UHGV virus genome: UHGV-0129366
Direction: 5' to 3' (one strand)
DNA: 44,625 nt
From: a virus
Part shown: positions 1 through 44,625 of the stretch, one piece after another
How the letters are laid out: each line of letters begins with the position of its first letter
Numbering within the stretch: the first letter of the stretch is position 1
Made by a program: the position numbers and the translations under genes
The notes under the pieces: model-generated
What the model saw: only the letters and a program-made list of their open reading frames with translations
The model's database searches: none
Told to the model about the DNA's origin: nothing

Positions 1-49
1 GCCACTATTCTAGTTGTTCTTAACTGGCTGATATTGATTCAAATCGCGT

Positions 50-2782: not shown

Positions 2783-2876
2783 GGTCGGTGCACTTTAGGT
2801 GAATAAGTTGTATATTTAAAATCTCTTTGACTATCAATGAATTAATATAAGCAGGTCATTATTAGTCAAAATAAAA
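2783..2876. other. attL: Candidate attL (core plus P-prime arm) between torS start and int 3' end
   Basis: AT-rich 94-bp junction; segment agtcaaaataaaatcatttgtcgatttcaattttgtccc resembles the lambda P-prime arm next to int; flanking core-side sequence differs from lambda. Confidence 0.45.
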
Positions 2877-3950
2877 TCATTTGTCGATTTCAATTTTGTC
2901 CCATTCCCGTCCACGGCTATCCCTATACCGCGCAGCCATTGAATCTGATTTATGCCCGAGAAGACGTTGAGCAAACTTATCGCCAATCTGGTTCCGGTAT
3001 AGCCTTGCTGACAGGCTACGCAGTTCATGGAATGTTGGCGGGTTTCCATCAAATGAGAGTCCAGATGCATTTCTCGCCTTTGTAAAATACTTTGATACTG
3101 TTTTCGGGGAAAGCGGATCGTGATGCTTTGATGCGATTATAGTTTCACTGCTGCTGGCCTCCCTGCATTTCTGTAGTGTATCAGCCAATGAGATATTGAG
3201 CGCGTCAATCGTTAGCATTAGCGGAATGGCGAGTTTAGCCCCTGTTTTACTCTGTTCAATGTGAAGATGGTTGTCGTTTATGTCTGACCATTTCATTCTG
3301 CATAAATCGCCCACTCTCTGCCCTGTAACGACAGCCAAATCCATCGCCAGCCTTAGCCAGATAGGGAGAGGTTCGGCTGCATGGTAAATCTCGACATACT
3401 CATTAGCTGTCAGCCTTGAGCGCCTTACTTCTGACTTTGCTGTACGGGTTGCTGTTACCGGATTCGTTGCCACATGCCCCTCGGCTATTGCTTCACGAAA
3501 AACGTCAACAAGGGTTGACCTGATTAATTTTGCGGAAGCTGCTTTACCTTCTGCTACGTAGGTGTTTAGCATTGCTGCCACATCTTTCGTTGATATGTCA
3601 GTGAGCGGTTTGTCCGGCAATTTTCTTCGGATTGCCCTGATTTTGCTGGCGTAGTCGAGTAGAGTTTTCGGCCTGATCCCCCTTTCGGTGAGGATTCTTT
3701 CATATCGGTCAAGCCACACATGAAGAGTGATTGCGTCACCGCCTTTAATTCTGTCTATCAGTGATTTGCGTCCGCTGTCTGAGAGTAACTCAATATTGGC
3801 CTGTATTGCTTCAGTGATTGCTATCCTCCTGTCTCGGCCTAATCCAAACTCTTTACCCGTCCTTGGGTCCCTGTAGCAGTAATATCCATTGTTTCTTATA
3901 TAAAGGTTAGGGGGTAAATCCCGGCGCTCATGACTTCGCCTTCTTCCCAT
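2877..3950 (-). CDS. int: Tyrosine integrase, lambda/HK022 Int family
   Basis: 357 aa, N-terminus MGRRRSHERRDLPPNLYIRNNGYYCYRDPRTGKEFGLGRDRRIAITEAIQAN and C-terminus near-collinear with lambda Int; catalytic R-K-H-R-H-Y context (HELRSLSARLY, LLGHKSD). Confidence 0.95.
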   Translation of the reverse strand: MGRRRSHERRDLPPNLYIRNNGYYCYRDPRTGKEFGLGRDRRIAITEAIQANIELLSDSGRKSLIDRIKGGDAITLHVWLDRYERILTERGIRPKTLLDYASKIRAIRRKLPDKPLTDISTKDVAAMLNTYVAEGKAASAKLIRSTLVDVFREAIAEGHVATNPVTATRTAKSEVRRSRLTANEYVEIYHAAEPLPIWLRLAMDLAVVTGQRVGDLCRMKWSDINDNHLHIEQSKTGAKLAIPLMLTIDALNISLADTLQKCREASSSETIIASKHHDPLSPKTVSKYFTKARNASGLSFDGNPPTFHELRSLSARLYRNQIGDKFAQRLLGHKSDSMAARYRDSRGREWDKIEIDK

Positions 3951-4146
3951 TTCTGATCCTCTTCAAAAGGCTACCTGTTACTGGTCGATTTAAGTCAACC
4001 TTTACCGCTGATTCGTGGAACAAATACTCTCTTCCATCCTTAACCGGAGGAGGGAATATCCTGCACTCGCGTACCCATCGACGAACTGTTTCAAGGCTTC
4101 TTGGACGTCGCTGGCGTGCGTTCCACTCCTGGAGTGTCAAGTACAT
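3928..4146 (-). CDS. xis: Excisionase Xis
   Basis: 72 aa, MYLTLQEWNARQRRPRSLETVRRWVRECRIFPPPVKDGREYLF..., one substitution from lambda Xis as recalled; overlaps int start as in lambda. Confidence 0.93.
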   Translation of the reverse strand: MYLTLQEWNARQRRPRSLETVRRWVRECRIFPPPVKDGREYLFHESAVKVDLNRPVTGSLLKRIRNGKKAKS

Positions 4147-4173
4147 CGCAAAGTCTCCGCAATTACACGCAAG

Positions 4174-4193
4174 AAAAAACCGCCATCAGGCGG
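4174..4193 (-). terminator. Putative rho-independent terminator upstream of xis
   Basis: Minus-strand hairpin ccgcc/tgat/ggcgg followed by a T-run (plus-strand A-run 4174-4179). Confidence 0.4.
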
Positions 4194-4353
4194 CTTGGTG
4201 TTCTTTCAGTTCTTCAATTCGAATATTGGTTACGTCTGCATGTGCTATCTGCGCCCACAGCATCCAGTGGTCATAGCAGTCATTGATGTTCTCTGCTTCG
4301 ATAACTCTGTTGAATGGTTCTCCATTCCATTCACCTGTGACTCGGAAGTGCAT
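4186..4353 (-). CDS. Small hypothetical protein (55 aa)
   Basis: ORF MHFRVTGEWNGEPFNRV... with GGAG Shine-Dalgarno 8 nt upstream; below the ORF-track cutoff; ends in the terminator hairpin. Confidence 0.3.
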   Translation of the reverse strand: MHFRVTGEWNGEPFNRVIEAENINDCYDHWMLWAQIAHADVTNIRIEELKEHQAA

Positions 4354-4425
4354 TTATCATCTCCATAAAACAAAACTCGCCGTAGCGAGTTCAGATAAAA
4401 GAAATCCCCGCGAGTGCGAGGATTG

Positions 4426-4710
4426 TTATTCATTGCCGATATTCACCTTTATCGCGAATACCTTTACCGGTTTATCGCCGAAGTGCGGATGTGTGATTGT
4501 CTTGATTTCATACCCTTCATACGGGACGTCTATTCTGCGACTGGAGTCGTCGCGCTTCGGATATCCCTTTGTGATAATCAGGCGGTCATATTCCCGGAAC
4601 ATAATTCGCTTATTCCAGTAGTCATTACACAGGCGATACTCTTCCGTTTTCTCTCCGCGAATCATGGCATCGAAGTATTCACCTTTGACGGCAAGTTGAA
4701 GGTTAGCCAC
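4426..4710 (-). CDS. ASCH/DUF3850-like (PUA-fold) protein
   Basis: 94 aa; motif KGEYFDAMIRGEKTEEYRLCNDY...REYDRLII matches the remembered DUF3850/ASCH pattern. Confidence 0.45.
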   Translation of the reverse strand: MANLQLAVKGEYFDAMIRGEKTEEYRLCNDYWNKRIMFREYDRLIITKGYPKRDDSSRRIDVPYEGYEIKTITHPHFGDKPVKVFAIKVNIGNE

Positions 4711-5326
4711 GGTTAACCTCCTGCGGCGGTTCTGGTAGCGGCATCCAGAACAAGGCGTTCCCTAACCACGATAAAGTGCCGTCGCTCAACTCCACGTATT
4801 CCCCTTGCACCTGTCCTGCCATATACTCACCGTGCTTTGAATAAATTAAAATCCAATCATCTTGAGCGGGCATTCGCTCACTACAGCTTATCCAACCACC
4901 CGGAGTTACCGGAGAGTTGCCGCGTTCTTTAATGTGCAAGCGAGGCTCACCATCTTTTGGTTCAGGCCACTGACGCTCCATGTTGATCTTCAATTTATCT
5001 TCCATAGCAGCGGTAATTTCAGCATCGCTGATGCCAGCACGGCGTTGTGCATCCCACAACAGAAACTGCATATCAGCCCACTCGCTAAGATCGTCTGGTT
5101 CGGCTGCGGCTTCCAGTGCCTCTTTTGAGAGGTGTTTCAGTGGACCAATGGGGCCAACGCAGCCAAATGTGGAGTCAGACCATTTGGCATGCTCGTGGCG
5201 AATCTGTTCGCGTTCCAGTGATGCCAGTGCAATTCGTGCCAGTTCCATTTGTTCGCCACGGGTAAGCCCGTTTTCAAGCGGGTATTTAATGAACAATTCA
5301 ATACGTTCTTTAGTAATAGTGGTCAT
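4703..5326 (-). CDS. MazG-like dNTP pyrophosphohydrolase N-domain with DUF551-like C-terminus
   Basis: 207 aa; acidic EexxE...EWAD motif block (LSKEALEAAAEPDDLSEWADMQFLL) typical of MazG-type NTP-PPases; Trp-rich C-terminal region. Confidence 0.45.
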   Translation of the reverse strand: MTTITKERIELFIKYPLENGLTRGEQMELARIALASLEREQIRHEHAKWSDSTFGCVGPIGPLKHLSKEALEAAAEPDDLSEWADMQFLLWDAQRRAGISDAEITAAMEDKLKINMERQWPEPKDGEPRLHIKERGNSPVTPGGWISCSERMPAQDDWILIYSKHGEYMAGQVQGEYVELSDGTLSWLGNALFWMPLPEPPQEVNRG

Positions 5327-5336
5327 TTGTTAGTCC

Positions 5337-6092
5337 TTAAACTGCTAGTTGCAATTGCATTTCAAAGCGGTCGCGTTGTTCACAATACGCAAGAGAACCA
5401 GGGCTATTGTGTGCCTCAATCCGTTCTACCATTAATGCTGCGCGTGTCTCTTTACTTGCAGGTGCATAAGCCCCAGACCAGGCTTTATCAATACCGATGT
5501 TTCGAGCGACGTTCGTACTATCTGCGCTGGCTAAGGGTAATTTTGTGAATATCAGCGGATTTAACATGCGCAATCCATGTAGTTTCGTAACCGGCTGACC
5601 ATGCCCATCAACAATGTGACGAATCAGGTCTTTCATTCTGGCTACCGCAAGAGTTGGGCGCTTTACGTCATAGTCGCCACAACTACCGATAGCCACTCGC
5701 GGAAACTCATTGCACAAATGAATAAATCGCTCGTCACTTTCATTCATGTGCCACACTGGAACGCCAGCTAGTTTTCCGTGAGGCCACTCATTCAGAAGCG
5801 CATCATTTTCCTCCTCTCCGCCATCAATAATATCCGGGATAATGGCAAAATCGAATCCTGGGTGATTCTTCCAGCGAGCAACAAACTCGTAGTAATCGCT
5901 CCAGTCGATTTTGTTTTTGCCAGCTGCTTTCCAGGCGGTGAATGCACCGTTGTCCAGCGCGAACGACTGACAGTATTCAGCCGCGAGATTGATCTGGCCT
6001 GAATGCGCAAAACTGATAAACGCATGTCGCCCTTTCCATGCTCTCATTGCGCACGTATCAGGAGTAATAGGCCCACCGTGGTAGTGAATCAT
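5337..6092 (-). CDS. tRNA-guanine transglycosylase-fold protein, DpdA-like candidate DNA transglycosylase
   Basis: Collinear motif matches to bacterial Tgt: LDNGAF vs LTDSGGFQ, AIIPDII vs MIFDEC, ADSTNVARNIG vs FDCVMPTRNARNG; no C-terminal zinc-binding CxCxxC...H region; start set at ATG 6092 with AAGGAG SD. Confidence 0.5.
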   Translation of the reverse strand: MIHYHGGPITPDTCAMRAWKGRHAFISFAHSGQINLAAEYCQSFALDNGAFTAWKAAGKNKIDWSDYYEFVARWKNHPGFDFAIIPDIIDGGEEENDALLNEWPHGKLAGVPVWHMNESDERFIHLCNEFPRVAIGSCGDYDVKRPTLAVARMKDLIRHIVDGHGQPVTKLHGLRMLNPLIFTKLPLASADSTNVARNIGIDKAWSGAYAPASKETRAALMVERIEAHNSPGSLAYCEQRDRFEMQLQLAV

Positions 6093-6093
6093 C

Positions 6094-6738
6094 TCACTCT
6101 CCTTTGATGCGAATGCCAGCGGCGCGGGAATCATTCCATCGCTTTACTTCTTCACGAATTACGTCAATGCATTCTTTCGAATCCATTAGGTAATCTTCAT
6201 CAAAAAGCCTTTCCTGTTCGTTTTCTATCGCAACAATGATTGCTTCAACTAACTTTTGTGCCTGAGAACCACTTTCTAACTCTGCAATGCGCTTCTCTGC
6301 GGCCTCTGCCCTGCATTGTTCCCGTTGGAACATTTTGTGGGTGCGGTCGAGCGCCTCAAGTCTGGCTGCTGATGTTTTCTCTTCTGCTTCAAGCTCAACG
6401 CGCAGCTTCCCTACCGTTAGCGCAATATCCTCGTTCTCCTTGTCGCGGGATTTTATGTATTGCTGGTTTCTTTCCCGTTCATCCAGTAGTGCCAGCGCAA
6501 CATTTGGATTAAAGGCAGCAATAAATTCAGCGTTTGCGTAAGCCTGAGCATCTGTTTCAACCAGGCAGTTAACATGACATTCTGCAATCACGCCACCGGG
6601 TTCTCCTTTCCATTTTTGACAAACAAAAACTCCTGTTAAATTGCCGTGCTGGTTAACAGATGTATGCCCTACGATGTAGCTTCCTTTAGTTGCTTTCTCT
6701 GCCTTTTCACGCAGTGCCTGATAGTTAATCTCGCTCAC
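6094..6738 (-). CDS. Ead/Ea22-like early protein
   Basis: 214 aa; N-terminus [19 protein letters not shown]...AEFIAAFNPNVALALLDERE typical of the Ea22-like family, followed by coiled-coil. Confidence 0.55.
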   Translation of the reverse strand: MSEINYQALREKAEKATKGSYIVGHTSVNQHGNLTGVFVCQKWKGEPGGVIAECHVNCLVETDAQAYANAEFIAAFNPNVALALLDERERNQQYIKSRDKENEDIALTVGKLRVELEAEEKTSAARLEALDRTHKMFQREQCRAEAAEKRIAELESGSQAQKLVEAIIVAIENEQERLFDEDYLMDSKECIDVIREEVKRWNDSRAAGIRIKGE

Positions 6739-6980
6739 TCTTCATCCTCCAAGTCGGCAACGGCGTCCATCACATCAGAACCGCGAATAACCTCAAAAGC
6801 ACGGCAGGCCATTTGAAATACCAGTTGCTCTTGCGGGTGAGGAGACTCCCAATATTTGAAGCCTGGGCGATGCGTGTACCCCATCATTGAATAAAAATCA
6901 CCAGCAAGCTTAATCGCGGCATCGACAAGCTCTCTGTTAGTCATTCTTTTTCCGCTCACTGGTTGCCTCCTTTGCGCCAC
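6735..6980 (-). CDS. Hypothetical early protein
   Basis: 81-aa ORF in the early-left operon, ATGA-coupled to the downstream gene. Confidence 0.4.
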
Positions 6981-7156
6981 ATCGCATTCAGATATTTGTT
7001 TTGATTCACTGACGGAAAAGAATTTCTCTTAAGCAATTCCTCTCTCGATGGCATTGGCTTTACGCGTTGGCGAATAATCATTTCTGCCGGAAGAATGCCG
7101 GGATTGTATGCAAGTCCTCTCATGGTAAATTCCTCAGTCATTACTGATAGCGCCAT
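6956..7156 (-). CDS. Hypothetical early protein
   Basis: 66-aa ORF in operon context; no recognisable motif. Confidence 0.3.
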
Positions 7157-7430
7157 AGCGTGAGCGGTAATTACGCAGGCGCGGGTCGATATATTCAGGG
7201 AATTTGTCTATTGTCGCTTTTCGCAACGGTCTCATTGCTGTTTCGTTTGTTCGGTCCTTCTCCTGTTTTAGCGCGAGTTGTATATCGCGTCGGTACATCC
7301 GTTCTGCTTTTGTTTCTGGTGTCAGAGCAAGAAACGCGTCGAAATTGTTTTTGATATTCTCCAGCACCTCCGCCTTGGAGCTACCGGAGCAGTTGCGCGG
7401 GTCATCCGCACCATACAGAGGCGCTGGCAT
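7134..7430 (-). CDS. Hypothetical early protein
   Basis: 98-aa ORF in operon context. Confidence 0.4.
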
Positions 7431-7453
7431 AATGGGAGCCTTATTTTCAGTAA

Positions 7454-8041
7454 TCAGAAAGCAGGGTAATCGTTCTGGCTGTAACCATAATCATCTGCAT
7501 GATTCTGGCTTACGTTTTTAGAGCGATTGTCTTTATCTTTGAGGCTGGCAACCATGTCGGCGATAGTTTCTGGTTGCTTGCCTTCTGCCTTTTCTTTAAG
7601 GGTTTGACCTGTTTGTGCAATAAACGGGATGCGTATTTCCATCTGGTAGCTGTCTGCGCCAGTCTTTTTGTTTGTGGTTAATACTTTCTGGAGCACTAAC
7701 CCGATTTTCTTTCCATGAAATTCAGGTGCAACAAATTTACTGGCGGAAACCATATGCTGCGTTAATTGTCCAATCCCGGCACACCCCATCATGGCGTGAA
7801 CGACATTTGCGCCAAATTTGTTTTCCGTTCCGTCATTTTTCTGAACACAAACGCTAAGATACTGGATTTTACGTCCGTCGTCGGATTCTCCAGAAAACTC
7901 AATAAATTTGGCTCCTTTTTCTGATTTCTTTAGTTCTGCTTCAGTAATGGTAATGATATGGGCGCCAGTTTCGTTAATAAAACCACCTTGCCCTGCGGTC
8001 AGTGCTGCTTCTTCGTTATAAGTAAAAATCACGTTGCTCAT
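7454..8041 (-). CDS. Phage SSB-like ssDNA-binding protein (Sak4 partner)
   Basis: 195 aa directly downstream of and overlapping the Sak4-like gene; acidic C-terminal tail ...DDYGYSQNDYPAF resembling SSB tails. Confidence 0.5.
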   Translation of the reverse strand: MSNVIFTYNEEAALTAGQGGFINETGAHIITITEAELKKSEKGAKFIEFSGESDDGRKIQYLSVCVQKNDGTENKFGANVVHAMMGCAGIGQLTQHMVSASKFVAPEFHGKKIGLVLQKVLTTNKKTGADSYQMEIRIPFIAQTGQTLKEKAEGKQPETIADMVASLKDKDNRSKNVSQNHADDYGYSQNDYPAF

Positions 8042-8718
8042 GCGGCGTTTTCCTTAATTTGATGAACATTATTGATGCCGTAGTAATCACAAACAGTGGC
8101 ATCGACGAAAGAGAGATCGTTATCAATCTCATTGGAATCAAACATTCCTATTGGGGATTTAACAGTGTCTGCACCGTTGTTTTTCGTGGTGAAAAAGAAC
8201 TGGTCATCGCGGGTAAGGGTGCGAAGAACTATAGTAAACATGCCTTCGACAGTGATTTTCTCGTCCAGCATTTTGCCGATAGTCTTCATTTTCACACGCC
8301 CCATAGGGGTTTCTTCGGTGTGTGCGAGAAAATAGACTCTCAGGTCATCAGGTGCATCCTGTGCAGCCTTAATCACCTCCCATGCGTGGCGGCCTATCTC
8401 AGTGAATTTATCAAACGATTTTTCTTCTGAGCGGCGCATAAACTCATTGCTCATCACATACTGGAAGTCATCAACAATAACGATTCTTTTCCCGTATTCG
8501 TGAGCACGCTTAATTACGGCAACTATTACGTCCCATTTGTCAGTGGTAACTACGGTTCCTTTTTTTGCTCTGGCATCCCATGCCAGCCAGTCTTTTGATT
8601 TAAATGGAAGCGGCTTGCCTATTGGTTTTATAAGTATTGCTTCCTCTGGATTGATATTTCTCATGCTGGTTGATTTTCCGGTGCCAGATTCACCGAGTAT
8701 TAATGTCGCAGTTCCCAT
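8038..8718 (-). CDS. Sak4-like RecA-fold single-strand annealing ATPase
   Basis: 226 aa; Walker A GESGTGKS near N-terminus and Walker B-like IVIVDD; position equivalent to lambda bet/exo. Confidence 0.7.
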   Translation of the reverse strand: MGTATLILGESGTGKSTSMRNINPEEAILIKPIGKPLPFKSKDWLAWDARAKKGTVVTTDKWDVIVAVIKRAHEYGKRIVIVDDFQYVMSNEFMRRSEEKSFDKFTEIGRHAWEVIKAAQDAPDDLRVYFLAHTEETPMGRVKMKTIGKMLDEKITVEGMFTIVLRTLTRDDQFFFTTKNNGADTVKSPIGMFDSNEIDNDLSFVDATVCDYYGINNVHQIKENAA

Positions 8719-8726
8719 AATTTGCC

Positions 8727-8927
8727 TCAGAATGGTAATTCGGATGGGGAGGAAAGAAACTCACGCTCATTCATGCGCTCTCTTTGTGCCTGCCATAAGC
8801 AAAGTTGTTTCTTTGATTTATCTCCCGCTTTACGCCAGTAACGAGCCTCAGCAATGTGATATTCTCTTTTTAATCGACTTAACTCTGGAGTTTTCGCCAG
8901 TTCTACCGGAATCATTTTGACCTCCAT
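8727..8927 (-). CDS. Hypothetical protein (gam-equivalent position)
   Basis: 66-aa ORF between kil and the Sak4 gene; no similarity to lambda Gam noticed. Confidence 0.35.
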   Translation of the reverse strand: MEVKMIPVELAKTPELSRLKREYHIAEARYWRKAGDKSKKQLCLWQAQRERMNEREFLSSPSELPF

Positions 8928-9025
8928 TTTCTGTAGGCTTCGACGGCCTCACGAAACATCTTTTCATCGCCAATAAAAGCGGCGATAGTGAATTTAGTCT
9001 GGATAGCCATAAGTGTTTTATCCAT
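8912..9025 (-). CDS. kil: Kil-like host cell division inhibitor
   Basis: MDKTLMAIQTKFTIAAFIGDEKMFREAVEAYRKW resembles lambda Kil as recalled; sits immediately downstream of cIII as in lambda. Confidence 0.55.
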   Translation of the reverse strand: MDKTLMAIQTKFTIAAFIGDEKMFREAVEAYRKWRSK

Positions 9026-9158
9026 TCTTTGGGACTCCTGGCTGATTAAGTATGTCGATAAGGCGTTTCCATCCGTCACGTAATTTACGGGTGATTCGTT
9101 CAAGTAAAGATTCGGAAGGGCAGCCAGCAACAGGCCACCCTGCAATGGCATATTGCAT
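9018..9158 (-). CDS. cIII: CIII, FtsH inhibitor
   Basis: MQYAIAGWPVAGCPSESLLERITRKLRDGWKRLIDILNQPGVPKNG matches lambda CIII; AAGGAG SD upstream. Confidence 0.85.
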   Translation of the reverse strand: MQYAIAGWPVAGCPSESLLERITRKLRDGWKRLIDILNQPGVPKNG

Positions 9159-9379
9159 GGTGTGCTCCTTATTTATACATAACGAAAAACGCCTCGAGTG
9201 AAGCGTTATTGGTATGCATATAAAAAGGCCCTCACACTGGAGGGCAAAGAAGATTTCCAATAATCAGAACAAGTCGGCTCCTGTTTGGTTACGAGCGACA
9301 TTGCTCCGTGTATTCACTCGTTGGAATGAATACACAGTGCAGTGTTTATTCTGTTGTTTATGCCAAAAATAAAGGACGA

Positions 9380-10003
9380 TTATGCGACCTCGGAAGGAAG
9401 TCCAATCATCTTATTCAAATCTTCTACCCGTAAAGCAGGAAGTGCTGTACTTGCTTTATCTGCTTCTTTTGGTAGCAACTCTTTGCTTTCAGGCCAAACT
9501 TCAATAAGTCGCTTAACTGTTGTGACTGAGTTCAAAGCAGCCCATACATTTGATTCGATATCCTTTTTCTTGGCTTCAAGTTTTTGTTGCAATGCGCAGA
9601 TTTCATCAAACCTTTTTGTTATTTCGTGTTCTGCGCTAAACATGCATTTATCTTTGGTCGGAGTAGGGAGCAATATATCTTCGCCGTTGCCGTCTTTCCC
9701 ATATGAATACCAGCCAACCCTTCTGCCAGATACAGTCAGATAAATTGAAGTTGAACGGGCATCGCATGAGTAAAATGAACATCCCAGCTTTTCAAGTTCT
9801 TCGCTTATAGCCATTAACTTGGATGATAACTGATCCACTTCCTCAGTTTTCTTTTTACCGCCAAACGCAACAACTCTGGCGTCAAGTGCAAGCTGGTTCT
9901 TTAACTTTGTTACTTCTTCAAGCTCAGTGAAAACCCCAGATTTAATTAAAGCGTTACGAGCGATTTTCTCTTTCATTCTCGTAGTTAAGCGGATTGATGA
10001 CAT
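9380..10003 (-). CDS. Hypothetical early protein (about 207 aa)
   Basis: Start moved to internal ATG 10003 (MSSIRLTT...) preceded by GAGG; lies between N and cIII where lambda carries ral/ea10. Confidence 0.45.
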   Translation of the reverse strand: MSSIRLTTRMKEKIARNALIKSGVFTELEEVTKLKNQLALDARVVAFGGKKKTEEVDQLSSKLMAISEELEKLGCSFYSCDARSTSIYLTVSGRRVGWYSYGKDGNGEDILLPTPTKDKCMFSAEHEITKRFDEICALQQKLEAKKKDIESNVWAALNSVTTVKRLIEVWPESKELLPKEADKASTALPALRVEDLNKMIGLPSEVA

Positions 10004-10064
10004 ATTAATTCCTCTCAAATAAGTGGTTTGCTGCCTAATTTCATTTTCTGGCGACCAACACAAG

Positions 10065-10337
10065 TCATCTTGCTGTCAGTTGTTTGGATTTCCGGTAGCC
10101 TGCCGCGTAAAGAGCTACATTTGGAAGACAAGTTGAGCCTTCATATTTTCTGGTCAACGTTGTCAGTGTTATTACTTCTGCTCTCATTGCTGGTTTGCGC
10201 TTGCATTGCAAGACCACTCGAGAGGGGGTTGGTCTGTGTAGCTTGTCGGAGCTAATCGCCTCCTGACTTTGCAGGTTTGCGCGACGAGCTCTACGACGAG
10301 AAGCTGAGGTGCCTTTAAATTCTGTTTTTCTGGACAT
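10065..10337 (-). CDS. N: Antiterminator N, P22 gene-24-like
   Basis: Arg-rich motif TSASRRRARRA near N-terminus; C-terminus LPNVALYAAGYRKSKQLTAR resembles P22 gp24; strong GGGAGGA SD; first gene after pL/nutL. Confidence 0.8.
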   Translation of the reverse strand: MSRKTEFKGTSASRRRARRANLQSQEAISSDKLHRPTPSRVVLQCKRKPAMRAEVITLTTLTRKYEGSTCLPNVALYAAGYRKSKQLTAR

Positions 10338-10362
10338 AGATTCCTCCCGAATAAACTTTGGT

Positions 10363-10410
10363 GATGCAATCTCGAAGCTCCTCCTGAGACGGTTGCTTCG
10401 GCATTGCATC
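10363..10410 (-). promoter_or_regulatory. Long imperfect inverted repeat in the N leader (candidate RNase III processing hairpin)
   Basis: 16-nt arms gatgcaatgccgaagc / gcttcgagattgcatc (2 mismatches) around a 16-nt loop, between nutL and the N SD. Confidence 0.35.
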
Positions 10411-10435
10411 CCACAGCTTATGTGGTTGGGTGATC

Positions 10436-10481
10436 TGGCTTTTCAGCCACGTAGTCGAGAGTCGACGTTGTTTAAAGAGCC
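10436..10481 (-). promoter_or_regulatory. nutL: Candidate nutL (boxA plus boxB)
   Basis: boxA-like GGCTCTTTAA and a boxB-like hairpin UGGCU-GAAA-AGCCA 22 nt downstream; same spacing and loop as the nutR candidate. Confidence 0.45.
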
Positions 10482-10526
10482 TGCCAGTCTGTTCCATTTA
10501 GCTTCCAGCGTCCTGCTGATGTGTTT

Positions 10527-10589
10527 AGTATCACCGCCGGAGGTATTTTCGTCAACACCGCTAGAGATAAAATATTACCGCAAATGGTT
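10527..10589 (-). promoter_or_regulatory. OL1-OL3 operators with pL promoter
   Basis: tatcaccgccggaggta, caacaccgctagagata and tattaccgcaaatggtt are close to lambda OL1/2/3; minus strand TTGACG-17nt-GATACT promoter overlaps OL2/OL1. Confidence 0.75.
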
Positions 10590-10736
10590 ATGTGCATGTT
10601 TTTACTATTGATTTATTTTTTTAAAGTTTTGCAGAGCTAGTCTGGATGTGTAGGAGCTGAATTGCGCAATGTGATAAGTGTGATTTATATTTATTCAATA
10701 AATACAATTCGTTAGGTGTGTTTTTGACGGGCTGAT

Positions 10737-10766
10737 GGTAAAAGAAAACCCGGCGCGGAGGCCGGG
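10737..10766 (-). terminator. Rho-independent terminator ending the cI operon
   Basis: GC hairpin cccggc/gcggag/gccggg followed on the minus strand by TTTTCTTTT, directly after the second rexAB-slot gene. Confidence 0.6.
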
Positions 10767-10781
10767 CTGAAGGGGCTCATT

Positions 10782-11711
10782 CTAATCGATTGATTTAATA
10801 TCCCATTGAGGTCGAGAAACCAGAGTGTATCTGGGCTTGCCCTTACCAACAGTTTTTTTCAGGAACGTGGCTGTTGCAACGCTTCCTAAGTGCTTGTTTA
10901 TAATATCTGGGTCATCTACAGCTTTGTCAATGCTAGCGGTTCTGATATCAGTGTTACCTAAAACTATAAATTCACATTGGCGCTTGTTAGGAAGAGTTCC
11001 CAAAAATATAACGTTCTCAATAATTTTTTCCTGCTGAATGTTATCATTGCTGAGATGTTGATATACAGCTTCAAGCTGTTTTGGCTCTCTAAAAACGATG
11101 CTAAAACCTTGGCTTTTAAGTGTAAAAACTGTTTTATTTTCATGCAGATAATGAATGAATGCTCTGATTTTATCTAAGGCCCGAGAGTCTAAGTTTTCTA
11201 TAGCATCAGACAATTCTTCATCATCATTATCCAAGCTTGCCTGAAATATTTTTCTGGCCTTATTAATAGCTTTTGCTACTGGGGTTTCTTCATCGAATTC
11301 AAGAGGAGCATCAGGTCTAAACTCTTCAAGTACGAATCCGAAAGAACCACGGGCTGACGCGGTAATCATGAGATGATTATTTTCTATGTTTGGTATCTTG
11401 CCTGATGCAGGAAGTGGGCCATTGAAAGAGGTTGCCAAGTAAGCTATTGCATCATTAAAACAAGATATAGCTTTTGTTCCAAATACTGCTGAAATGCCAT
11501 GCGTGCCAACTACTGTTGGGCCTCTAAAAGTTAACACAGCATGCGTAGGTTCATGTTCTCGAACGTCAGCTTGTGAAATTAATCGCTCAACTTTCTCCAG
11601 ACGGTCTTCTAAGCTTTTTCGGCTAATAGAATGACTTGTTGGCATATTTTTTAATAGATTACTTATTTGCTCGCGCTCACTGAGAGCGAAAACATAATCA
11701 TTACGATTCAT
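10782..11711 (-). CDS. Uncharacterised protein, second gene of the rexAB-slot operon (309 aa)
   Basis: Long ORF, start overlaps the upstream gene stop by 4 bp (ATGA); no family recognised; contains an R-x6-H stretch (RAFIHYLH) of unknown significance. Confidence 0.6.
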   Translation of the reverse strand: MNRNDYVFALSEREQISNLLKNMPTSHSISRKSLEDRLEKVERLISQADVREHEPTHAVLTFRGPTVVGTHGISAVFGTKAISCFNDAIAYLATSFNGPLPASGKIPNIENNHLMITASARGSFGFVLEEFRPDAPLEFDEETPVAKAINKARKIFQASLDNDDEELSDAIENLDSRALDKIRAFIHYLHENKTVFTLKSQGFSIVFREPKQLEAVYQHLSNDNIQQEKIIENVIFLGTLPNKRQCEFIVLGNTDIRTASIDKAVDDPDIINKHLGSVATATFLKKTVGKGKPRYTLVSRPQWDIKSID

Positions 11712-12286
11712 TGTTTGACCCCCTCAGTAGTAGCCGAATTAAGTATAGTCATTGCCACAACATCAAGTTGTGGGTTTAACGGGATTTGGATAAATCCCTT
11801 CCACGACAGATCGCGTCTATGTGCCCACATACTGTACCAATATACAGTCATTTCAACAAGCTCATGACTTGGTAGATTAAGTTCTTGGAAGTAGGAATCT
11901 ACGAAAAACTCCTTCTTAACAAAATCATGATCAAATAGCTCTGGCTTTCTACCGATTACGATTGCATCATTATCGCCATTACTGAATTGAAAAAAGGTCA
12001 CAACATCGACATCATTCGGTGGCCTTTTTTCAATAAGTTCAATATGTTCTGTGAAGCTTCCATCTACCCACTGAAAACCTTCAACTAGCCCTGCTTGAGT
12101 GAGTGAAACACGAAAGTTAAGAAAACCCTTAAGGATTTTAATCCTTGCAGGGCTAAGCGAAAAAGTACTAACAAAGCGTACTATATCCATTTTGTATGGG
12201 GAACGAGTATGGCTTGTAGGATCAGCCTCGTCTATTGGGGGGATTAACCCCATCTCATTCCATAGAGAGACAGTTGGTATACTCAA
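11708..12286 (-). CDS. Uncharacterised protein, first gene of the rexAB-slot operon (192 aa)
   Basis: Begins 86 bp downstream of cI on the same strand; segment VDGSFTEHIELIEKRPPNDVDVV loosely resembles a GS...DxD nucleotidyltransferase-fold signature. Confidence 0.6.
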   Translation of the reverse strand: MSIPTVSLWNEMGLIPPIDEADPTSHTRSPYKMDIVRFVSTFSLSPARIKILKGFLNFRVSLTQAGLVEGFQWVDGSFTEHIELIEKRPPNDVDVVTFFQFSNGDNDAIVIGRKPELFDHDFVKKEFFVDSYFQELNLPSHELVEMTVYWYSMWAHRRDLSWKGFIQIPLNPQLDVVAMTILNSATTEGVKQ

Positions 12287-12372
12287 TGCTTAACCTTTAT
12301 AACGAACTGAATATTCGGCAAAATATTGTTTTTAGGTATTGGCTGCTGTGCTTGTCGGACGTTTATTTCGTG

Positions 12373-13089
<717 letters not shown>

Positions 13090-13096
13090 TTAAATC

Positions 13097-13162
13097 TATC
13101 ACCGCAGGGGATAAATATCTAACACCGCAGATGTTGACTATTTTACCTCTGGCGGTGATAAT
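13097..13162. promoter_or_regulatory. OR3-OR2-OR1 operators with PR and PRM
   Basis: OR3 tatcaccgcaggggata 13097-13113, OR2 taacaccgcagatgttg 13120-13136, OR1 tacctctggcggtgata 13144-13160; PR -35 ttgact 13134-13139 and -10 gataat 13157-13162. Confidence 0.9.
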
Positions 13163-13177
13163 GACTGTATGTACTAA

Positions 13178-13387
<210 letters not shown>

Positions 13388-13394
13388 GTAACCC

Positions 13395-13440
13395 CGCTCT
13401 TTGTAACAACGGACATTCGTCCTACGTCGCTGAAAAGCGA
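13395..13440 (+). promoter_or_regulatory. nutR: Candidate nutR (boxA plus boxB)
   Basis: boxA CGCTCTTTG 13395-13403; boxB hairpin UCGCU-GAAA-AGCGA 13427-13440. Confidence 0.5.
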
Positions 13441-13525
13441 GCCCCAAGATATCTGACCAACTCAGGCCATATGCGTTTCCACGCATACCAGTCAACTAAC
13501 TATTCACTATTGGAAATCTTAAGAA

Positions 13526-13825
13526 ATGGAAAGAACAAGTTACAGCAAACTATCACAGCGCGACGTTGATCGCGCAGAAACAGATTTACTCATCAACCTG
13601 TCAGCGATTACCCAGCGCGGTCTGGCAAAGATGATTGGCTGTCATGAATCGAAGATAAGCAGAACGGACTGGAGATTTATTGCTTCGGTCTTGTGTGCTT
13701 TCGGAATGGCATCAGACATCAGTCCGATTAGCAGGGCTTTTAAGTATGCGCTTGATGGACTCACCAATAAAAAACGCCCGGTGTGCAAGACCGAGCGTTC
13801 TGAACAAATCCAGATGGAATTTTAA
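13526..13825 (+). CDS. cII: CII-like transcriptional activator
   Basis: 99 aa; C-terminus TNKKRPVCKTERSEQIQMEF matches lambda CII C-terminus; N-terminal HTH region divergent. Confidence 0.75.
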   Translation: MERTSYSKLSQRDVDRAETDLLINLSAITQRGLAKMIGCHESKISRTDWRFIASVLCAFGMASDISPISRAFKYALDGLTNKKRPVCKTERSEQIQMEF

Positions 13826-17606: not shown

Positions 17607-17685
17607 TTTATCCGGGGCTATATTCCTCACACGCCAGCAAAATCTGGCGTCGGGATTGGCGTCCCGGATAGAAACCGCGACAGAG

Positions 17686-17708
17686 ACACGCCGCGAGCGT
17701 GTTTTTTA
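17686..17708 (+). terminator. Putative intrinsic terminator in the ninE-roi intergenic region
   Basis: Hairpin acacg/ccgcgag/cgtgt followed by TTTTTATT. Confidence 0.4.
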
Positions 17709-17868
17709 TTGTCGTATGCACGCGCACATCTGAATTATGGTGGGCTGTGTGGGGGCGGAGAGATCCGCGCCGGTCGGTTTCCCGGTTACGCCAACCCTGC
17801 ACAGTTCACCGCCAGACGATTGGCGTCGTCGGTGGTGAGTCATTTAGAAACCACCGGAGAGCGTCACC

Positions 17869-18546
17869 ATGACAACTCAAATTTCTGTCGAAACTCTTTC
17901 CCCGATCACCCACAACCAGATCCCCGTTATTACAACTGAACTTCTTGCGCAGTTATACGGAACAAAAATCAAAAACATTTCGGATAACTTTCTTAACAAC
18001 ACGACGCGATTCGTGGTAGGGAAGCATTACTTTAAAATTGAAAGGAACGAATTACGCGAGTTTAAGAACAGACCCGAAACAATCGGGTTAGTTGGTAAAA
18101 ATGCCCGCTCCCTCATCCTCTGGACAGAACGCGGAGCAGCCCGTCACGCCAAAATGCTCGAAACCGATCAGGCGTGGGAAGTGTTCGAAAAACTGGAAGA
18201 CTGCTATTTCAGCCAGTGCGAGAAAAATACTGGCAAACAAGAGAAGAAGCCCAACGGGCTTTCCGCAAAAGAAACAGACAGCCTTGTTTGGCTGTGGGAT
18301 TATGCCAACCGCTCACAGGCATTGTTCCGTGAGTTGTATCCCGCATTAAAACTGATTCAGTCTGGCTATTCCGGCATATGCCACGACTACGGCTATGAGT
18401 TCTCGTATATCATCGGGAGGGCGAGGGGCGTTTTAATTAATCACACGCGGGATATAGATATTTATGAGCCTGACGGGCCGACGAACCTTCTGGCATGGGA
18501 AAGGCTTAAGAACAAAGAGTTGCCGCCTTCACTGCATCGCTACTGA
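17869..18546 (+). CDS. Roi/antirepressor-like DNA-binding protein
   Basis: 225 aa; N-terminal region [37 protein letters not shown] resembles the ORF6N/KilA-N-type fold; C-terminal 100 aa is about 85 percent identical to the C-terminus of the ant-like protein at 40656-41579. Confidence 0.6.
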
Positions 18547-39334: not shown

Positions 39335-39871
39335 TCAAACAACCCACCAGTTTGCCTGATTGGATACCAGCCTTGCAGTTTTTATGGAATTAATTATGCC
39401 ATGCTCAAGAGCCTTGTTAGCATCCAAAATGGTCGAGTCTGCTATCAGGGATGCCCACCTAATATGGGTTCCGATGTCGATATTGAACGTCTCAACGAAG
39501 CGATCAAGATCGTTATCGAGGCATTTCCCGTACTCTCTCAATCTGGCATGGTCGGCGGCTGGGGAGGCAAAGCACCATAATAGAGGATGTAACAGGAATC
39601 TTGATAATGGGTTTGCGAAACGTTCTGAGCCAGCCAGGAAAACGATATTAGCTATGGATTCAACATTGCTTATGTTGTGAGTTCTAACGGTAACAGGGAG
39701 TGACTTAAGAAAGTTATACGCAGTAAAGCCAGCGGCAGTTTCCCCTCCCTGACTTGATATATGGATATTTAATTCAGTTGCGCCTTGAGATAATGCGGTG
39801 AGACAGTGGTTCTGAAGTTGCCCAACAGTGGCAGTGTTAACGGGGCATAAGAAATGAATTGTGTGCAGCAT
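39335..39871 (-). CDS. ClpP/crotonase-fold serine protease-like protein, translationally coupled to mnt
   Basis: 178 aa; HISSQGGETAAGFTAYNFL parallels the ClpP YINSPGG...AG block; Ser (VESIAN), His (LLHPLL) and Asp candidates in ClpP order; start ATG overlaps the mnt stop. Confidence 0.5.
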   Translation of the reverse strand: MLHTIHFLCPVNTATVGQLQNHCLTALSQGATELNIHISSQGGETAAGFTAYNFLKSLPVTVRTHNISNVESIANIVFLAGSERFANPLSRFLLHPLLWCFASPAADHARLREYGKCLDNDLDRFVETFNIDIGTHIRWASLIADSTILDANKALEHGIINSIKTARLVSNQANWWVV

Positions 39872-40125
39872 TATTTATCATCCTTGCCATAAATCTTTTT
39901 AAGTGTCTCAAACACAACGGCCTTGAACTGCTCTGCTTGCTGATCAGCCAAGCGTTCAGCTTCGTCTCGATAGCCTGCAATCGGTGATGGCTTTGAGAGA
40001 GCATCCTGAACGATTTGTAATAACTCAGAGTTCATTGACCTTCCGTTAGCCTCTGCTCTTAATTTCAATTTTTCTCTTACTTCCAAAGGCATACGGAAGT
40101 TAAAGTGCGGATCGTTTCTAGCCAT
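39871..40125 (-). CDS. mnt: Mnt repressor (ribbon-helix-helix)
   Basis: 84 aa MARNDPHFNFRMPLEVREKLKLRAEANGRSMNSELLQIVQDALS... closely resembles P22 Mnt. Confidence 0.9.
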   Translation of the reverse strand: MARNDPHFNFRMPLEVREKLKLRAEANGRSMNSELLQIVQDALSKPSPIAGYRDEAERLADQQAEQFKAVVFETLKKIYGKDDK

Positions 40126-40147
40126 GCCATCACCCCAAGTTAGTGTA

Positions 40148-40200
40148 TTGACATGATAGAAGCACTCTACTATATTCTCAATAGGTCCACAGTGGACCTA
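40148..40200. promoter_or_regulatory. immI control region: Pant with Oarc and Omnt operators
   Basis: -35 ttgaca 40148-40153, -10 tatatt 40171-40176; Oarc atgatagaagcactctactat 40153-40173; Omnt palindrome taggtccacagtggaccta 40182-40200. Confidence 0.8.
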
Positions 40201-40215
40201 TATTGTGAGGTAAAT

Positions 40216-40374
40216 ATGAAAGGAATGAGCAAAATGCCGCAGTTCAATTTGCGGTGGCCTAAAGAAGTATTGGATTTGGTGCGTAAGGTGGCGGAAGAGA
40301 ACGGGCGATCTGTTAACTCTGAGATTTACAAGCGAGTGTTGGACAGCCTGAAGAGAGAGGGGATAACGGTATGA
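40216..40374 (+). CDS. arc: Arc repressor
   Basis: MKGMSKMPQFNLRWPKEVLDLVRKVAEENGRSVNSEIYKRVLDSLKREG matches P22 Arc; GTGAGG SD. Confidence 0.92.
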   Translation: MKGMSKMPQFNLRWPKEVLDLVRKVAEENGRSVNSEIYKRVLDSLKREGITV

Positions 40375-40592
40375 GGTTTATTGAGGTTGATGAGATTGGC
40401 TATGAGAATGCACTTGGTAGAGGTAAATCTTTAGTTAACATTGATGGCATTGAATCGATAAGGAGTGGTGAATTTACGGAGATCAGAATGATGTCAGGCG
40501 GAATCATTCCTTGCCGTGATTCAGTAGAGTCAATCAAATCAAAAATGAGTGGTCAGTGGCTTTATAGCTACAGTGACTTACAAAAACAGTGA
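40371..40592 (+). CDS. Hypothetical 73-aa protein inserted between arc and ant
   Basis: ATGA-coupled to the arc stop; no family recognised. Confidence 0.45.
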   Translation: MRFIEVDEIGYENALGRGKSLVNIDGIESIRSGEFTEIRMMSGGIIPCRDSVESIKSKMSGQWLYSYSDLQKQ

Positions 40593-40655
40593 AGCCCCAA
40601 CTGCGGGAACAGTCAGGGCTTCGGTATCGTAAAACCACGCATAGGAATTAACGAC

Positions 40656-41579
40656 ATGACGAGTGTAGCAATTGCAGAACATACAATCAACGTTCCATTC
40701 CACGGAACAAATCTCTTTTTGGTCAGCATTAACAATGAACCTTACGTTCCTATGAAACCCGTTGTAGAAGGCATGGGTATGGTTTGGGCTGCTCAATTTG
40801 TTAAATTAAAACAGAGATTTGTCAAAGGTATTTCGGAAATCGAAATACCTTCTGCTGGCGGTAAACAGTTAATGATATGCCTTGCCTTTCGTAAGTTTGC
40901 GGCTTGGCTTTCAAGCATTCAGCCAAACAAAGTCCGCCCTGAAATCCGCGACAAGGTAATCCAGTATCAGGAAGAGTGTGACGATGTGCTCTACGAGTAC
41001 TGGACTAAAGGTCATGTAGTTAACCCACGCAAAGCTAAAAAGGCGTTGCCGAGTAAAATTACCACTGAACAGCAGGAAGCCATTAAACAACTCGTCATGA
41101 GTCGCGGTCAGTCTCTGCCAAAAGAAAAACAGGCGAAGGCAATGATTACCATGTGGTCGTCACTGAAATCTCATTTTGGGTGTTCATACAAAGAAATCAG
41201 CGAGGAGCAGTTTACCGAAGCTCTGTCACTTGCAGCTCGCGTTCCGCTTGAAGGTGAGTTTATCGGCAAACAAGAGAAGAAAACCAACGAGCTTTCTGCA
41301 AAAGAAGCAAACAGCCTTGTATGGTTATGGGATTATGCCAACCGTTCACAGGCATTATTCCGCGAACTGTATCCGGCGCTAAAACAAATTCAATCGAACT
41401 ATTCCGGCAGATGCTACGACTACGGTCATGAGTTCTCGTATGTTATCGGAATGGCGAGAGACGTTTTAATCAATCACACACGAGATGTTGATATTAATGA
41501 GCCAGACGGACCAACGAATCTTTCCGCATGGATGAGACTTAAGAATAAAGAATTACCTCCTTCAGTACATAACTACTGA
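40656..41579 (+). CDS. ant: Antirepressor-like protein
   Basis: 307 aa downstream of arc in the Pant operon; not similar to P22 Ant as recalled; C-terminal 100 aa shared with the Roi-like protein at 17869-18546. Confidence 0.6.
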
Positions 41580-41621
41580 CAGATAACCAACGCAACGACC
41601 CAGCTTCGGCTGGGTTTTTTT
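41265..41621 (+). repeat. Copy 2 of the dispersed direct repeat
   Basis: See copy 1. Confidence 0.6.
41599..41621 (+). terminator. Rho-independent terminator after ant
   Basis: cccagc-ttcg-gctggg followed by TTTTTTT; duplicate of the terminator at 18565-18588. Confidence 0.7.
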
Positions 41622-41679
41622 ATGCCCAAAATTCACCGTAGCCATGCTGCGGCGATTCCTTGTATCTGGAGCAAATTAA

Positions 41680-44625
41680 ATGACAGATATCACCGCAAAT
41701 GTTGTGGTAAGCATGCCTTCGCAACTCTTCACTATGGCGCGTTCTTTTAAAGCAGTAGCTAATGGCAAAATTTATATCGGTAAAATTGACACTGACCCTG
41801 TAAATCCTGAAAACCAGATTCAGGCTTATGTGGAGAACGAAGACGGTTCTCACGTTCCTGTTTCGCAACCAATAATCATTAACGCTGCCGGATATCCGGT
41901 ATATAACGGACAGATTGCCAAGTTTGTAACTGTGCAAGGCCATTCCATGGCTGTATATGATGCGTATGGTTCGCAGCAGTTCTATTTTCCCAATGTGCTG
42001 AAGTATGATCCTGATCAGTTACGGCAGCAATTAGAAGACCCAGATGGAGCGAATAAATACCCAAAACTTCAGATAGCAAGATGGAGAGACAGTTATGATG
42101 TAAGAGGTTGGGGGGCTATTGGTGATGGTGTTCATGATGATACATCAGCTCTATCAGAATTACTTTCTGTTGCAACAGGTGGTGAAAAGATAGATGGGCG
42201 AGGGCTTACTTTTAAAGTATCAACTCTTCCAGATGTCAGTCGATTTAAAAATGCTCGTTTTTTATTTGAGAGAATACCGGGTCAGCCTCTTTTTTATGTT
42301 TCTGAAGATTTTATCCAGGGAGAGTTATTTAAAATTACAGATACACCGTGGTACAACGCCTGGACGCAGGATAAAACGTTTGTATATGACAATGTCATCT
42401 ATGCGCCTTTTATGGCTGGAGACCGCCATGGTGTAAATAACCTCCATGTTGCATGGGTTCGCTCAGGAGATGACGGGAAGACCTGGACAACGCCGGAATG
42501 GCTTACAGATTTACATGAAAACTATCCCACAGTTAACTATCACTGCATGAGTATGGGGGTTGTCAGAAATCGCCTTTTTGCTGTAATTGAGACGCGGACC
42601 GTGAGCGGAAATAAACTGCAGGTTGCAGAGTTGTGGGATCGCCCAATGAGTCGCAGCCTTCGCGTTTATGGTGGTATAACGAAAGCAGCAAATCAGCAAG
42701 TCGCTTATATTCGCATTACTGATCACGGATTATTTGCTGGTGATTTTGTCAACTTCTCAAACTCTGGTGTTACAGGTGTTACCGGGAATATGACGGTGAC
42801 TACTGTTATTGATAAAAATACTTTTACAGTTACGACGCAAAATACCCAGGATGTGGATCAGAATAACGAGGGTAGATACTGGAGTTTTGGTACATCATTT
42901 CACTCGTCACCATGGAGAAAAACCAGTCTTGGAACTATTCCTTCTTTTGTTGACGGAAGCACTCCTGTTACTGAGATTCACAGTTTTGCGACGATTAGCG
43001 ATAACAGTTTTGCTGTTGGCTACCATAATGGTGATATTGGTCCACGCGAGCTTGGGATACTCTATTTCTCTGATGCTTTCGGTTCTCCTGGTAGCTTTGT
43101 TCGCAGACGCATACCTGCAGAATATGAGGCGAATGCATCTGAGCCATGTGTAAAATATTATGATGGCATTCTGTATCTGACGACCAGGGGGACATTAAGT
43201 ACTCAACCCGGTAGTTCATTGCACAGAAGCTCTGATTTAGGTACATCATGGAATTCTCTTCGCTTCCCAAATAATGTTCATCACTCAAACCTTCCTTTTG
43301 CCAAAGTTGGCGATGAGCTGATTATTTTTGGCAGTGAGCGCGCATTTGGTGAGTGGGAAGGAGGAGAACCTGATAACCGTTATGCAGGAAACTATCCAAG
43401 AACATTTATGACCAGAGTTAACGTCAATGAGTGGAGTCTGGATAATGTAGAGTGGGTTAATGTTACTGATCAGATTTATCAGGGCGGAATAGTTAACTCT
43501 GCGGTTGGTGTTGGTTCAGTTTGTATCAAAGACAACTGGCTGTACTACATTTTCGGTGGGGAAGACTTTCTAAACCCATGGAGCATAGGGGATAACAACA
43601 GAAAATATCCTTATGTTCACGATGGTCACCCGGCTGATTTGTATTGTTTCAGGGTGAAAATTAAACAGGAAGAATTTGTTTCAAGGGATTTTGTCTACGG
43701 AGCCACTCCTAACAGAACGCTTCCTACTTTTATGTCGACGTCAGGCGTGAGGACGGTTCCTGTACCCGTTGATTTCACAGATGATGTTGCCGTCCAGTCA
43801 CTGACTGTCCATGCAGGTACATCAGGACAAGTTCGCGCGGAAGTCAAACTTGAGGGTAATTACGCCATTATTGCGAAGAAAGTACCGTCTGATGATGTTA
43901 CCGCTCAGAGATTAATCGTTAGCGGCGGTGAAACAACGTCTTCAGCAGATGGTGCAATGATAACGTTGCATGGTTCCAGAAGCAGTACTCCACGTCGCGC
44001 GGTATATAACGCACTCGAACATCTTTTTGAGAACGGAGATGTTAAACCTTATCTTGATAATGTAAATGCTCTTGGTGGTCCGGGAAACAGGTTCTCGATA
44101 GTTTATCTTGGCTCCAATCCTGTGGTTACCAGTGACGGAACATTAAAGACAGAGCCGGTCTCTCCTGACGAAGCATTGCTGGATGCTTGGGGTGACGTCA
44201 GGTATATCGCTTATAAATGGCTGAACGCTGTCGCTATAAAGGGGGAAGAAGGGGCGAGGATACATCATGGTGTAATCGCGCAGCAACTTCGTGATGTTCT
44301 TATTTCTCACGGACTCATGGAAGAAGAAAGCACAACATGCCGCTATGCCTTTCTTTGCTATGACGATTATCCCGCAGTATATGATGACGTCATTACTGGC
44401 CAAAGGGAAATGCCGCTGACTGATAATGACGGGAGCATCATTGTTGATGAGGATGATAATCCAGTGATGGTAATAGAAGACATCATTGAGCGCGTTGAAA
44501 TAACGCCAGCAGGATCTAGATGGGGGGTCAGACCTGATCTCTTATTCTATATCGAGGCGGCATGGCAGCGCAGAGAAATGGATAAGATAAAAGCTAGGTT
44601 AGACTTAATAGAAGGGAAGCACTAA
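41680..44625 (+). CDS. Tailspike: P22-type head-binding domain fused to an endosialidase-like beta-propeller and a C-terminal self-cleaving chaperone domain
   Basis: 981 aa; N-terminal 110 aa [48 protein letters not shown]... as in P22 gp9; Asp-box motifs SGDDGKTW and SSDLGTSW; C-terminal region [11 protein letters not shown]... typical of intramolecular chaperone domains. Confidence 0.8.

Follow-up and report, generated by a model that had tools for sequence, protein, structure and literature searches.

The last gene of UHGV-0129366, a viral DNA stretch of 44,625 nucleotides (nt) referred to here as the window, encodes a tailspike that very probably, at roughly 95%, serves as the receptor-destroying protein of a P22-like (Lederbergvirus-type) temperate phage targeting Escherichia coli K1 and that would be the product of the same gene as siaK1 of phage CUS-3. 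This reading is carried by direct observations of the domain layout of the protein, the identity of its catalytic module to that of CUS-3, the conservation of its functional residues and the P22-type genomic context. The tailspike is an already characterised protein with an architecture that has already been described, and in this sense it is ordinary.

The tailspike and CUS-3 SiaK1

The gene is an open reading frame (ORF) that starts with ATG at 41680 and ends with TAA at 44623-44625, with which the window also closes. It aligns with CUS-3 siaK1 (CP000711) at 98.8% nt identity over 100% of its length, and SiaK1 itself (ABQ88383.1), which is encoded by a prophage of E. coli RS218, also has 981 amino acids (aa) and an equal domain order. 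The two proteins are 99.0% identical, with 10 differences in 981 residues, five of which fall in aa 9-121 and five in aa 832-969, while aa 122-831 are identical. All 36 nt differences are likewise confined to the two flanks of the gene. The original prediction had called the protein reminiscent of CUS-3; the likeness is there, but the wording understates it, as this is the same tailspike gene. The features of the gene are as follows.

41668-41671, plus strand: ribosome-binding site GGAG, 8 nt before the tailspike ATG, read directly from the sequence
41680-44625, plus strand: endosialidase tailspike gene (siaK1 type), a single uninterrupted ORF of 981 aa
41680-42018, plus strand: P22-type head-binding (particle-binding) domain, aa 1-113 (Pfam PF09008, E 3e-66; PDB 1lkt, 2vnl)
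42019-42114, plus strand: linker or neck joining the two lineages, aa 114-145 (sequence comparison)
42115-42315, plus strand: End_N_terminal, endosialidase N-terminal extension, aa 146-212 (Pfam PF12218, E 3e-37)
42316-43665, plus strand: End_beta_propel, six-bladed beta-propeller catalytic domain, aa 213-662 (Pfam PF12217, E 1e-233)
42649-42897, plus strand: End_beta_barrel, lectin-like and nested in the propeller, aa 324-406 (Pfam PF12195, E 1e-46)
43666-44130, plus strand: End_tail_spike, stalk (triple beta-helix), aa 663-817 (Pfam PF12219, E 7e-78)
44131-44622, plus strand: C-terminal intramolecular chaperone domain, aa 818-981 (Pfam PF13884; PDB 3gw6)
42463-42486, plus strand: Asp-box 1, SGDDGKTW, aa 262-269 (sequence)
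43228-43251, plus strand: Asp-box 2, SSDLGTSW, aa 517-524 (sequence)
42427-42429, 43045-43047, 43141-43143, 43186-43188 and 43339-43341, plus strand: codons of the active-site residues H250, R456, E488, R503 and R554, respectively
44131-44133 and 44146-44148, plus strand: codons of the cleavage dyad, S818 and K823
41680-42040, plus strand: 5' flank, gene nt 1-361, with 28 differences from CUS-3 siaK1 (DNA alignment)
42041-44172, plus strand: gene nt 362-2493, 2132 bases with 0 differences from CUS-3 siaK1 (DNA alignment)
44173-44586, plus strand: 3' flank, gene nt 2494-2907, with 8 differences from CUS-3 siaK1 (DNA alignment)

With 2132 identical bases between diverged flanks, the pattern of differences suggests that the catalytic module has recently recombined at both of its borders. 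Over its catalytic, barrel and stalk domains, the tailspike is thus the very protein characterised in CUS-3; a slightly diverged lineage is represented only by the head that binds the particle and by the chaperone tail.

The domain and structure matches are far from chance level. The PF09008 match is full-length (profile positions 1-113 of 113), and the propeller profile PF12217 is also matched over its full length; in the chaperone domain, the Peptidase_S74 profile (PF13884) covers aa 818-878 (E 2e-10). In comparisons with PDB, P22-type head-binding structures match aa 1-120 (E 1e-45 to 1e-65), the structures 1v0e and 3gvl of endoNF, the endosialidase of phage K1F, match aa 146-817 (E = 0), and the structure of the endoNF C-terminal chaperone, 3gw6, matches aa 698-979 (E 4e-93). 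The architecture proposed in the original prediction is recovered in each of its parts: a particle-binding domain like that of P22 gp9 (77% identity over PF09008), an endosialidase with sialidase Asp-boxes, seen as four endosialidase Pfam domains over aa 146-817 with both boxes located, and a chaperone-like C-terminal domain as in K1 endosialidases (PF13884 and 3gw6). From the sequence, the precursor should weigh 109.3 kDa, the mature spike 90.6 kDa and the C-terminal domain after its release 18.6 kDa; the value given for the CUS-3 tailspike in a review table agrees with 109 kDa. An ORF of 107 aa on the minus strand (41620-41943), which lies inside and opposite the start of the tailspike gene and has no Pfam match, was judged spurious.

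For the functional residues, the tailspike was aligned to gp17 from the K1F genome record, which marks both the mature protein and the C-terminal domain that is set free; the list of active-site residues, catalytic or substrate-binding, was taken from a deep mutational scan of K1F. Over aa 114-980, the tailspike and K1F endoNF are 63.6% identical, and within the propeller the figure is 70%. The original prediction had named a lack of the endosialidase catalytic residues as the outcome that would overturn it, and instead all five (H350, R549, E581, R596 and R647 of endoNF) are conserved in the alignment, as H250, R456, E488, R503 and R554, as are the second-shell residues Q330, D331, H527, S528, K585 and N699.

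In endoNF, a Ser/Lys dyad catalyses the auto-cleavage of the chaperone domain. The corresponding site in the tailspike, NPVVT|SDGTLK, aligns to T910|S911 of endoNF, with S818 and K823 at the positions of S911 and K916, and the mature spike is predicted to end at T817. In the K1F record, gp17-CTD begins at the Ser that aligns to S818.

The identity of aa 122-831 to CUS-3 SiaK1, together with the conserved active site, supports the predicted specificity for polysialic acid (K1-type), and cleavage of alpha-2,8-polysialic acid would be expected from a catalytic module identical to that of SiaK1. The GenBank record of CUS-3 names the product 'endosialidase tailspike protein' and lists endo-alpha-sialidase activity by direct assay (IDA, PMID 16689790), and a review classes the CUS-3 tailspike as an endo-N-acetylneuraminidase. 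The chimeric architecture of the tailspike was already described in 2006 (Stummeyer et al.).

Among other phages, the same catalytic family is combined with different attachment modules. K1F endoNF (gp17) has the propeller, barrel, stalk and chaperone domains in common with the tailspike, but its N-terminus is T7-fibre-like, whereas that of the tailspike is P22-like; relative to endoNF, the tailspike has three insertions, FVDGSTP at aa 423-429, one Gly at aa 858, and 8 aa at 925-932. EndoNF belongs to the CAZy family GH58. The enzyme endoN92 of the K92 phage phi92 (59.9% identity) is joined to a myovirus attachment module, the endosialidase of 63D/Phage #D (55%) to a siphovirus attachment module, and those of K1E/K1-5 (52-58%) attach in an SP6-like way with an adapter protein. 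The structural features that define the endosialidases are present in the tailspike: the propeller, the Asp-boxes, the five active-site residues, the barrel insertion, the stalk, and the chaperone with its Ser/Lys dyad.

Head-binding domain and P22-type context

Over aa 1-113, the tailspike is 77% identical to P22 gp9, 92% to the HK620 tailspike and 97.5% to that of vB_EcoP-720R6. The joint between the two lineages lies just behind this domain: the alignment to K1F endoNF begins at aa 114, inside the linker, the resemblance to P22-like tailspikes ends at about aa 120-150, and a DNA match to phage Gally covers gene nt 1-449 only. The tailspikes of P22, HK620 and Sf6 have the head-binding domain in common with the protein studied here, and their genes are likewise placed after ant, but their receptor-binding parts are enzymes that cleave O-antigen and lack a C-terminal S74 chaperone, and their likeness to the tailspike stops within the linker, at about aa 120-125. 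These parts have a right-handed beta-helix fold. The record of P22 gp9 annotates it as an endorhamnosidase, and according to a review, the N-terminal domain is conserved among CUS-3, HK620, Sf6 and P22, and the catalytic domain is common to CUS-3 and K1F.

The element that carries the gene is a P22-like prophage at torS|torT, and not CUS-3 at argW. Its tailspike gene occupies the position of P22 gene 9, directly after the immI region, so that both features of a P22-like tailspike, the N-terminal head-binding domain and the position after mnt, arc and ant, are found. The parts of the prophage that bear on this placement are listed below.

39871-41579, both strands: P22-type immI region, directly upstream of the tailspike gene
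39871-40125, minus strand: mnt (immI)
40153-40374 as listed, likely 40216-40374, plus strand: arc (immI)
40371-40592, plus strand: ORF of 73 aa (immI)
40588-40654, minus strand: sar antisense RNA (Rfam score 76.6 bits)
40656-41579, plus strand: ant (immI)
41597-41616, plus strand: terminator-like hairpin, rich in G+C and with a T-run after it, in the interval from ant to the tailspike gene (L005 9918-9937)
50-2782, minus strand: torS, chromosomal, at the left end of the window (ORF)
2877-3950, minus strand: integrase of the lambda family (lambda/HK022-type), next to torS

The window has the ant gene and the boundary sequence upstream of siaK1 in common with CUS-3, and the terminator-like hairpin falls within the stretch annotated as bsq1 (boundary sequence) in that phage. 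Upstream of the tailspike gene, P22-type ORFs for the terminase, portal, scaffold, coat, gp4, gp10, gp26, gp14, gp7, gp20 and gp16 are open and uninterrupted in the window.

A likeness to P22 gp9 could in principle be incidental, in which case the protein would be a free depolymerase outside the virion. Nothing was found in favour of this idea, and we regard it as scarcely credible: the head-binding profile is matched in full length (E 3e-66), the gene stands in the gene-9 position after mnt-arc-ant and the sar RNA, and partner tail proteins of the gp4, gp10 and gp26 types are encoded upstream.

A 178-aa ClpP-like protease ORF (39335-39871, minus strand; PF00574, E 2e-11) adjoins mnt in the immI region.

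Expected action, host capsule and prophage activity

Enzyme activity, proteolytic maturation, K1 host range and inducibility of the prophage are those that would be expected from characterised homologues. By analogy with these, the 109-kDa precursor would trimerise with the help of the C-terminal intramolecular chaperone domain (aa 818-981), and the Ser/Lys dyad of S818 and K823 would then cut between T817 and S818, giving the 90.6-kDa mature spike. The trimer would be docked by aa 1-113 onto a P22-type tail hub, and the propeller (aa 213-662) would bind the alpha-2,8-polysialic acid of the capsule and cleave it internally, so that the virion could bore its way through the K1 capsule and reach the outer membrane.

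The gene would mark the prophage as specific for the K1 capsule, and it suggests a host from a K1 lineage, such as neonatal meningitis, urosepsis or avian pathogenic E. coli. The exact 981-aa protein occurs in 55 blocks of public assemblies. Of the 5426 complete E. coli genomes, 194 have the endosialidase module and 329 have neuS, the polysialyltransferase gene. Among the matches listed, carriers of the module are UTI89, S88, IHE3034, UM146, ATCC 11775, CE10 and MS7163, the first five of which are K1 strains. The CE10 record names O7:K1, MS7163 is used in the literature as a K1 ST95 reference strain, and the matching phage records give K1 strains as hosts.

None of the 5426 complete E. coli genomes matches the right end of the window in full. 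The closest relative at the same site is the prophage of AR_0017, which has the torS junction and is 99.9% identical over positions 1-13781 of the window; it departs from the window in the nin, lysis and immI regions, and its tailspike is 99.1% identical. AR_0017 carries a complete K1 region with kpsFEDUCS, neuS, neuE, neuC, neuA, neuB, neuD and kpsTM. With the K1 cluster of AR_0017 and the K1 strains among the listed module carriers as proxies, the host is likely to be, or to have been, K1-encapsulated, in line with the original prediction. The neuE gene of AR_0017 (L010 9913-11062) is annotated as frameshifted, which means either that a lysogen of a K1 phage has lost its capsule or that the assembly is wrong at this point.

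Several points weigh against the reading of the tailspike as the active, K1-specific protein of a functional phage. One concerns the stalk, where Q853 of endoNF, which is part of a sialic-acid binding site, corresponds to M760 in the tailspike, the sole change among the functional sites checked; the active CUS-3 enzyme has the same change. The capsule locus of the host, moreover, lies outside the window. CUS-3-like prophages are reported to be prone to decay, and among the matches listed, insertions of IS3-family or IS903B elements split the same tailspike gene in FY26, NCTC11151, SF-088, M15 and GPEC128-620. Because such split copies are present in several complete genomes, the gene has been repeatedly inactivated in lysogens, and for the same reason, together with the reported decay, the presence of the prophage alone is no proof of an active phage, although the copy of the tailspike gene studied here is intact.

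The replaced stalk residue, and the existence of a family member on the K92 phage phi92 at 59.9% identity, are what could be said for a shifted specificity, for example towards O-acetylated polysialic acid or the K92 polymer (alternating alpha-2,8/2,9) over the plain K1 polymer. Since aa 122-831 are identical to CUS-3 SiaK1, the specificity should be that of the known enzyme, and the K1 hosts given in the matching phage records argue in the same direction; such a shift is very improbable.

The decay described in the literature and the disrupted copies speak for a different proposal, in which the prophage is defective and the gene, for all its intact look, is a relic whose product no longer reaches virions and plays no part in infection today. 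Against it stand the uninterrupted ORF with all its functional residues kept, the P22-type structural ORFs from the terminase to gp16, all open in the window, the recurrence of the exact protein in public assemblies, and the zero substitutions in the catalytic module relative to CUS-3. We consider a relic improbable, though less so than a change of specificity, and retain the view that the gene encodes the K1-targeting tailspike of a P22-like temperate phage.

As a protein, the tailspike is one more textbook case of the swapping of tailspike modules and brings no new biology, because its catalytic part is identical to the CUS-3 enzyme and the chimera was described in 2006.

Integration site and neuO

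The integration site and the DNA downstream of the gene set the prophage apart from CUS-3, with which the window has partial matches only, at 78-98% identity, as a mosaic relative. Instead of argW and an IntS-type integrase, by which a CUS-3 phage is recognised, the left junction is torS and the integrase is of the lambda family. At 2790-2810, the sequence GCACTTTAGGTGAATAAGTTG is a putative, imperfect att core that resembles the attL core of HK022. Since the window stops at the stop codon of the tailspike gene, the DNA beyond it was read from two contigs that carry the identical protein, L005 and L006, which differ from the last 12.9 kb of the window by 1 and 0 mismatches, respectively. In both, the tailspike gene is followed by 689 base pairs (bp) and then by torT, torR, torCAD, cbpM/cbpA and agp. 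A second putative HK022-like core, again imperfect, CATCCTTAAGGTGAAAAAGGTTG, is found at L005 13560-13582, 614 nt past the tailspike stop; the two cores would bound the prophage. A search for exact repeats between the left junction and the L005 DNA 3' of the tailspike gene gave only an 11-bp match, which is probably due to chance.

The original prediction had also proposed to look downstream for O-acetyltransferase cargo, and the contigs with the identical protein lack neuO. The 92 bp directly 3' of siaK1 in CUS-3 are equal in these contigs, and the first 407 bp past the stop (L005 12947-13353) match the CUS-3 DNA 3' of siaK1 in two pieces. In CUS-3, these pieces are separated by 843 bp that carry neuO and an array of AAGACTC heptamers, and exactly this 843-bp O-acetyltransferase cassette is missing from L005 and L006. 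An 11-bp repeat, TAAATATAAAA, flanks the cassette in CUS-3 and is present as a single copy in L005 and L006. Among the 5426 complete E. coli genomes, 59 have this junction without neuO.

The downstream match closes with 84-120 bp (L005 about 13230-13353) from the 3' end of an integrase of the IntS type (argW), and the same remnant is found at the AR_0017 locus (L003 45527-45610). It is placed between the tailspike gene and the attR of a prophage with another integrase, and it looks like the scar of a swap of the integration module. Because this IntS remnant follows the tailspike gene, the tailspike end of the phage looks as if it once belonged to a CUS-3-like genome.

In the literature, CUS-3-like phages that carry neuO are described at argW and, in fewer cases, at pgl-bioA. 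No description of the neuO-less form at torS|torT was found in the literature on CUS-3-like phages, the coverage of which was incomplete. Another integration site and the lack of neuO are ordinary mosaicism among P22-like prophages. It is possible, though doubtful, that the window represents a little-described CUS-3-like sub-lineage, marked by torS|torT in place of argW or pgl-bioA, by the clean absence of the 843-bp neuO segment at the 11-bp repeat, and by an endosialidase module recently recombined into a diverged frame of head-binding and chaperone domains. K1 tropism and O-acetylation cargo would then be separable and move independently among P22-like prophages, and the tailspike would still be a known enzyme. 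A lineage at torS|torT without neuO is an only mildly useful addition, and it bears on surveys that equate neuO with the presence of the 'CUS-3 phage'.

Some minor observations concern other parts of the prophage. Rfam matches at the gathering score to c4-a1b1, isrK and C4 antisense RNA (P1/P7-type immunity RNA) lie at 17618-17816 on the plus strand, just 5' of an ORF of 225 aa (17869-18546), in a part where the window and the AR_0017 prophage differ. A lambda cIII thermoregulator RNA element is found at 9113-9171 on the minus strand (Rfam score 88.5 bits). At the left end, the torS ORF of the window ends at 50, whereas torS of AR_0017, frameshifted according to PGAP, ends 11 nt further (39), which is either a real change of the last few codons or a sequencing error shared by both.

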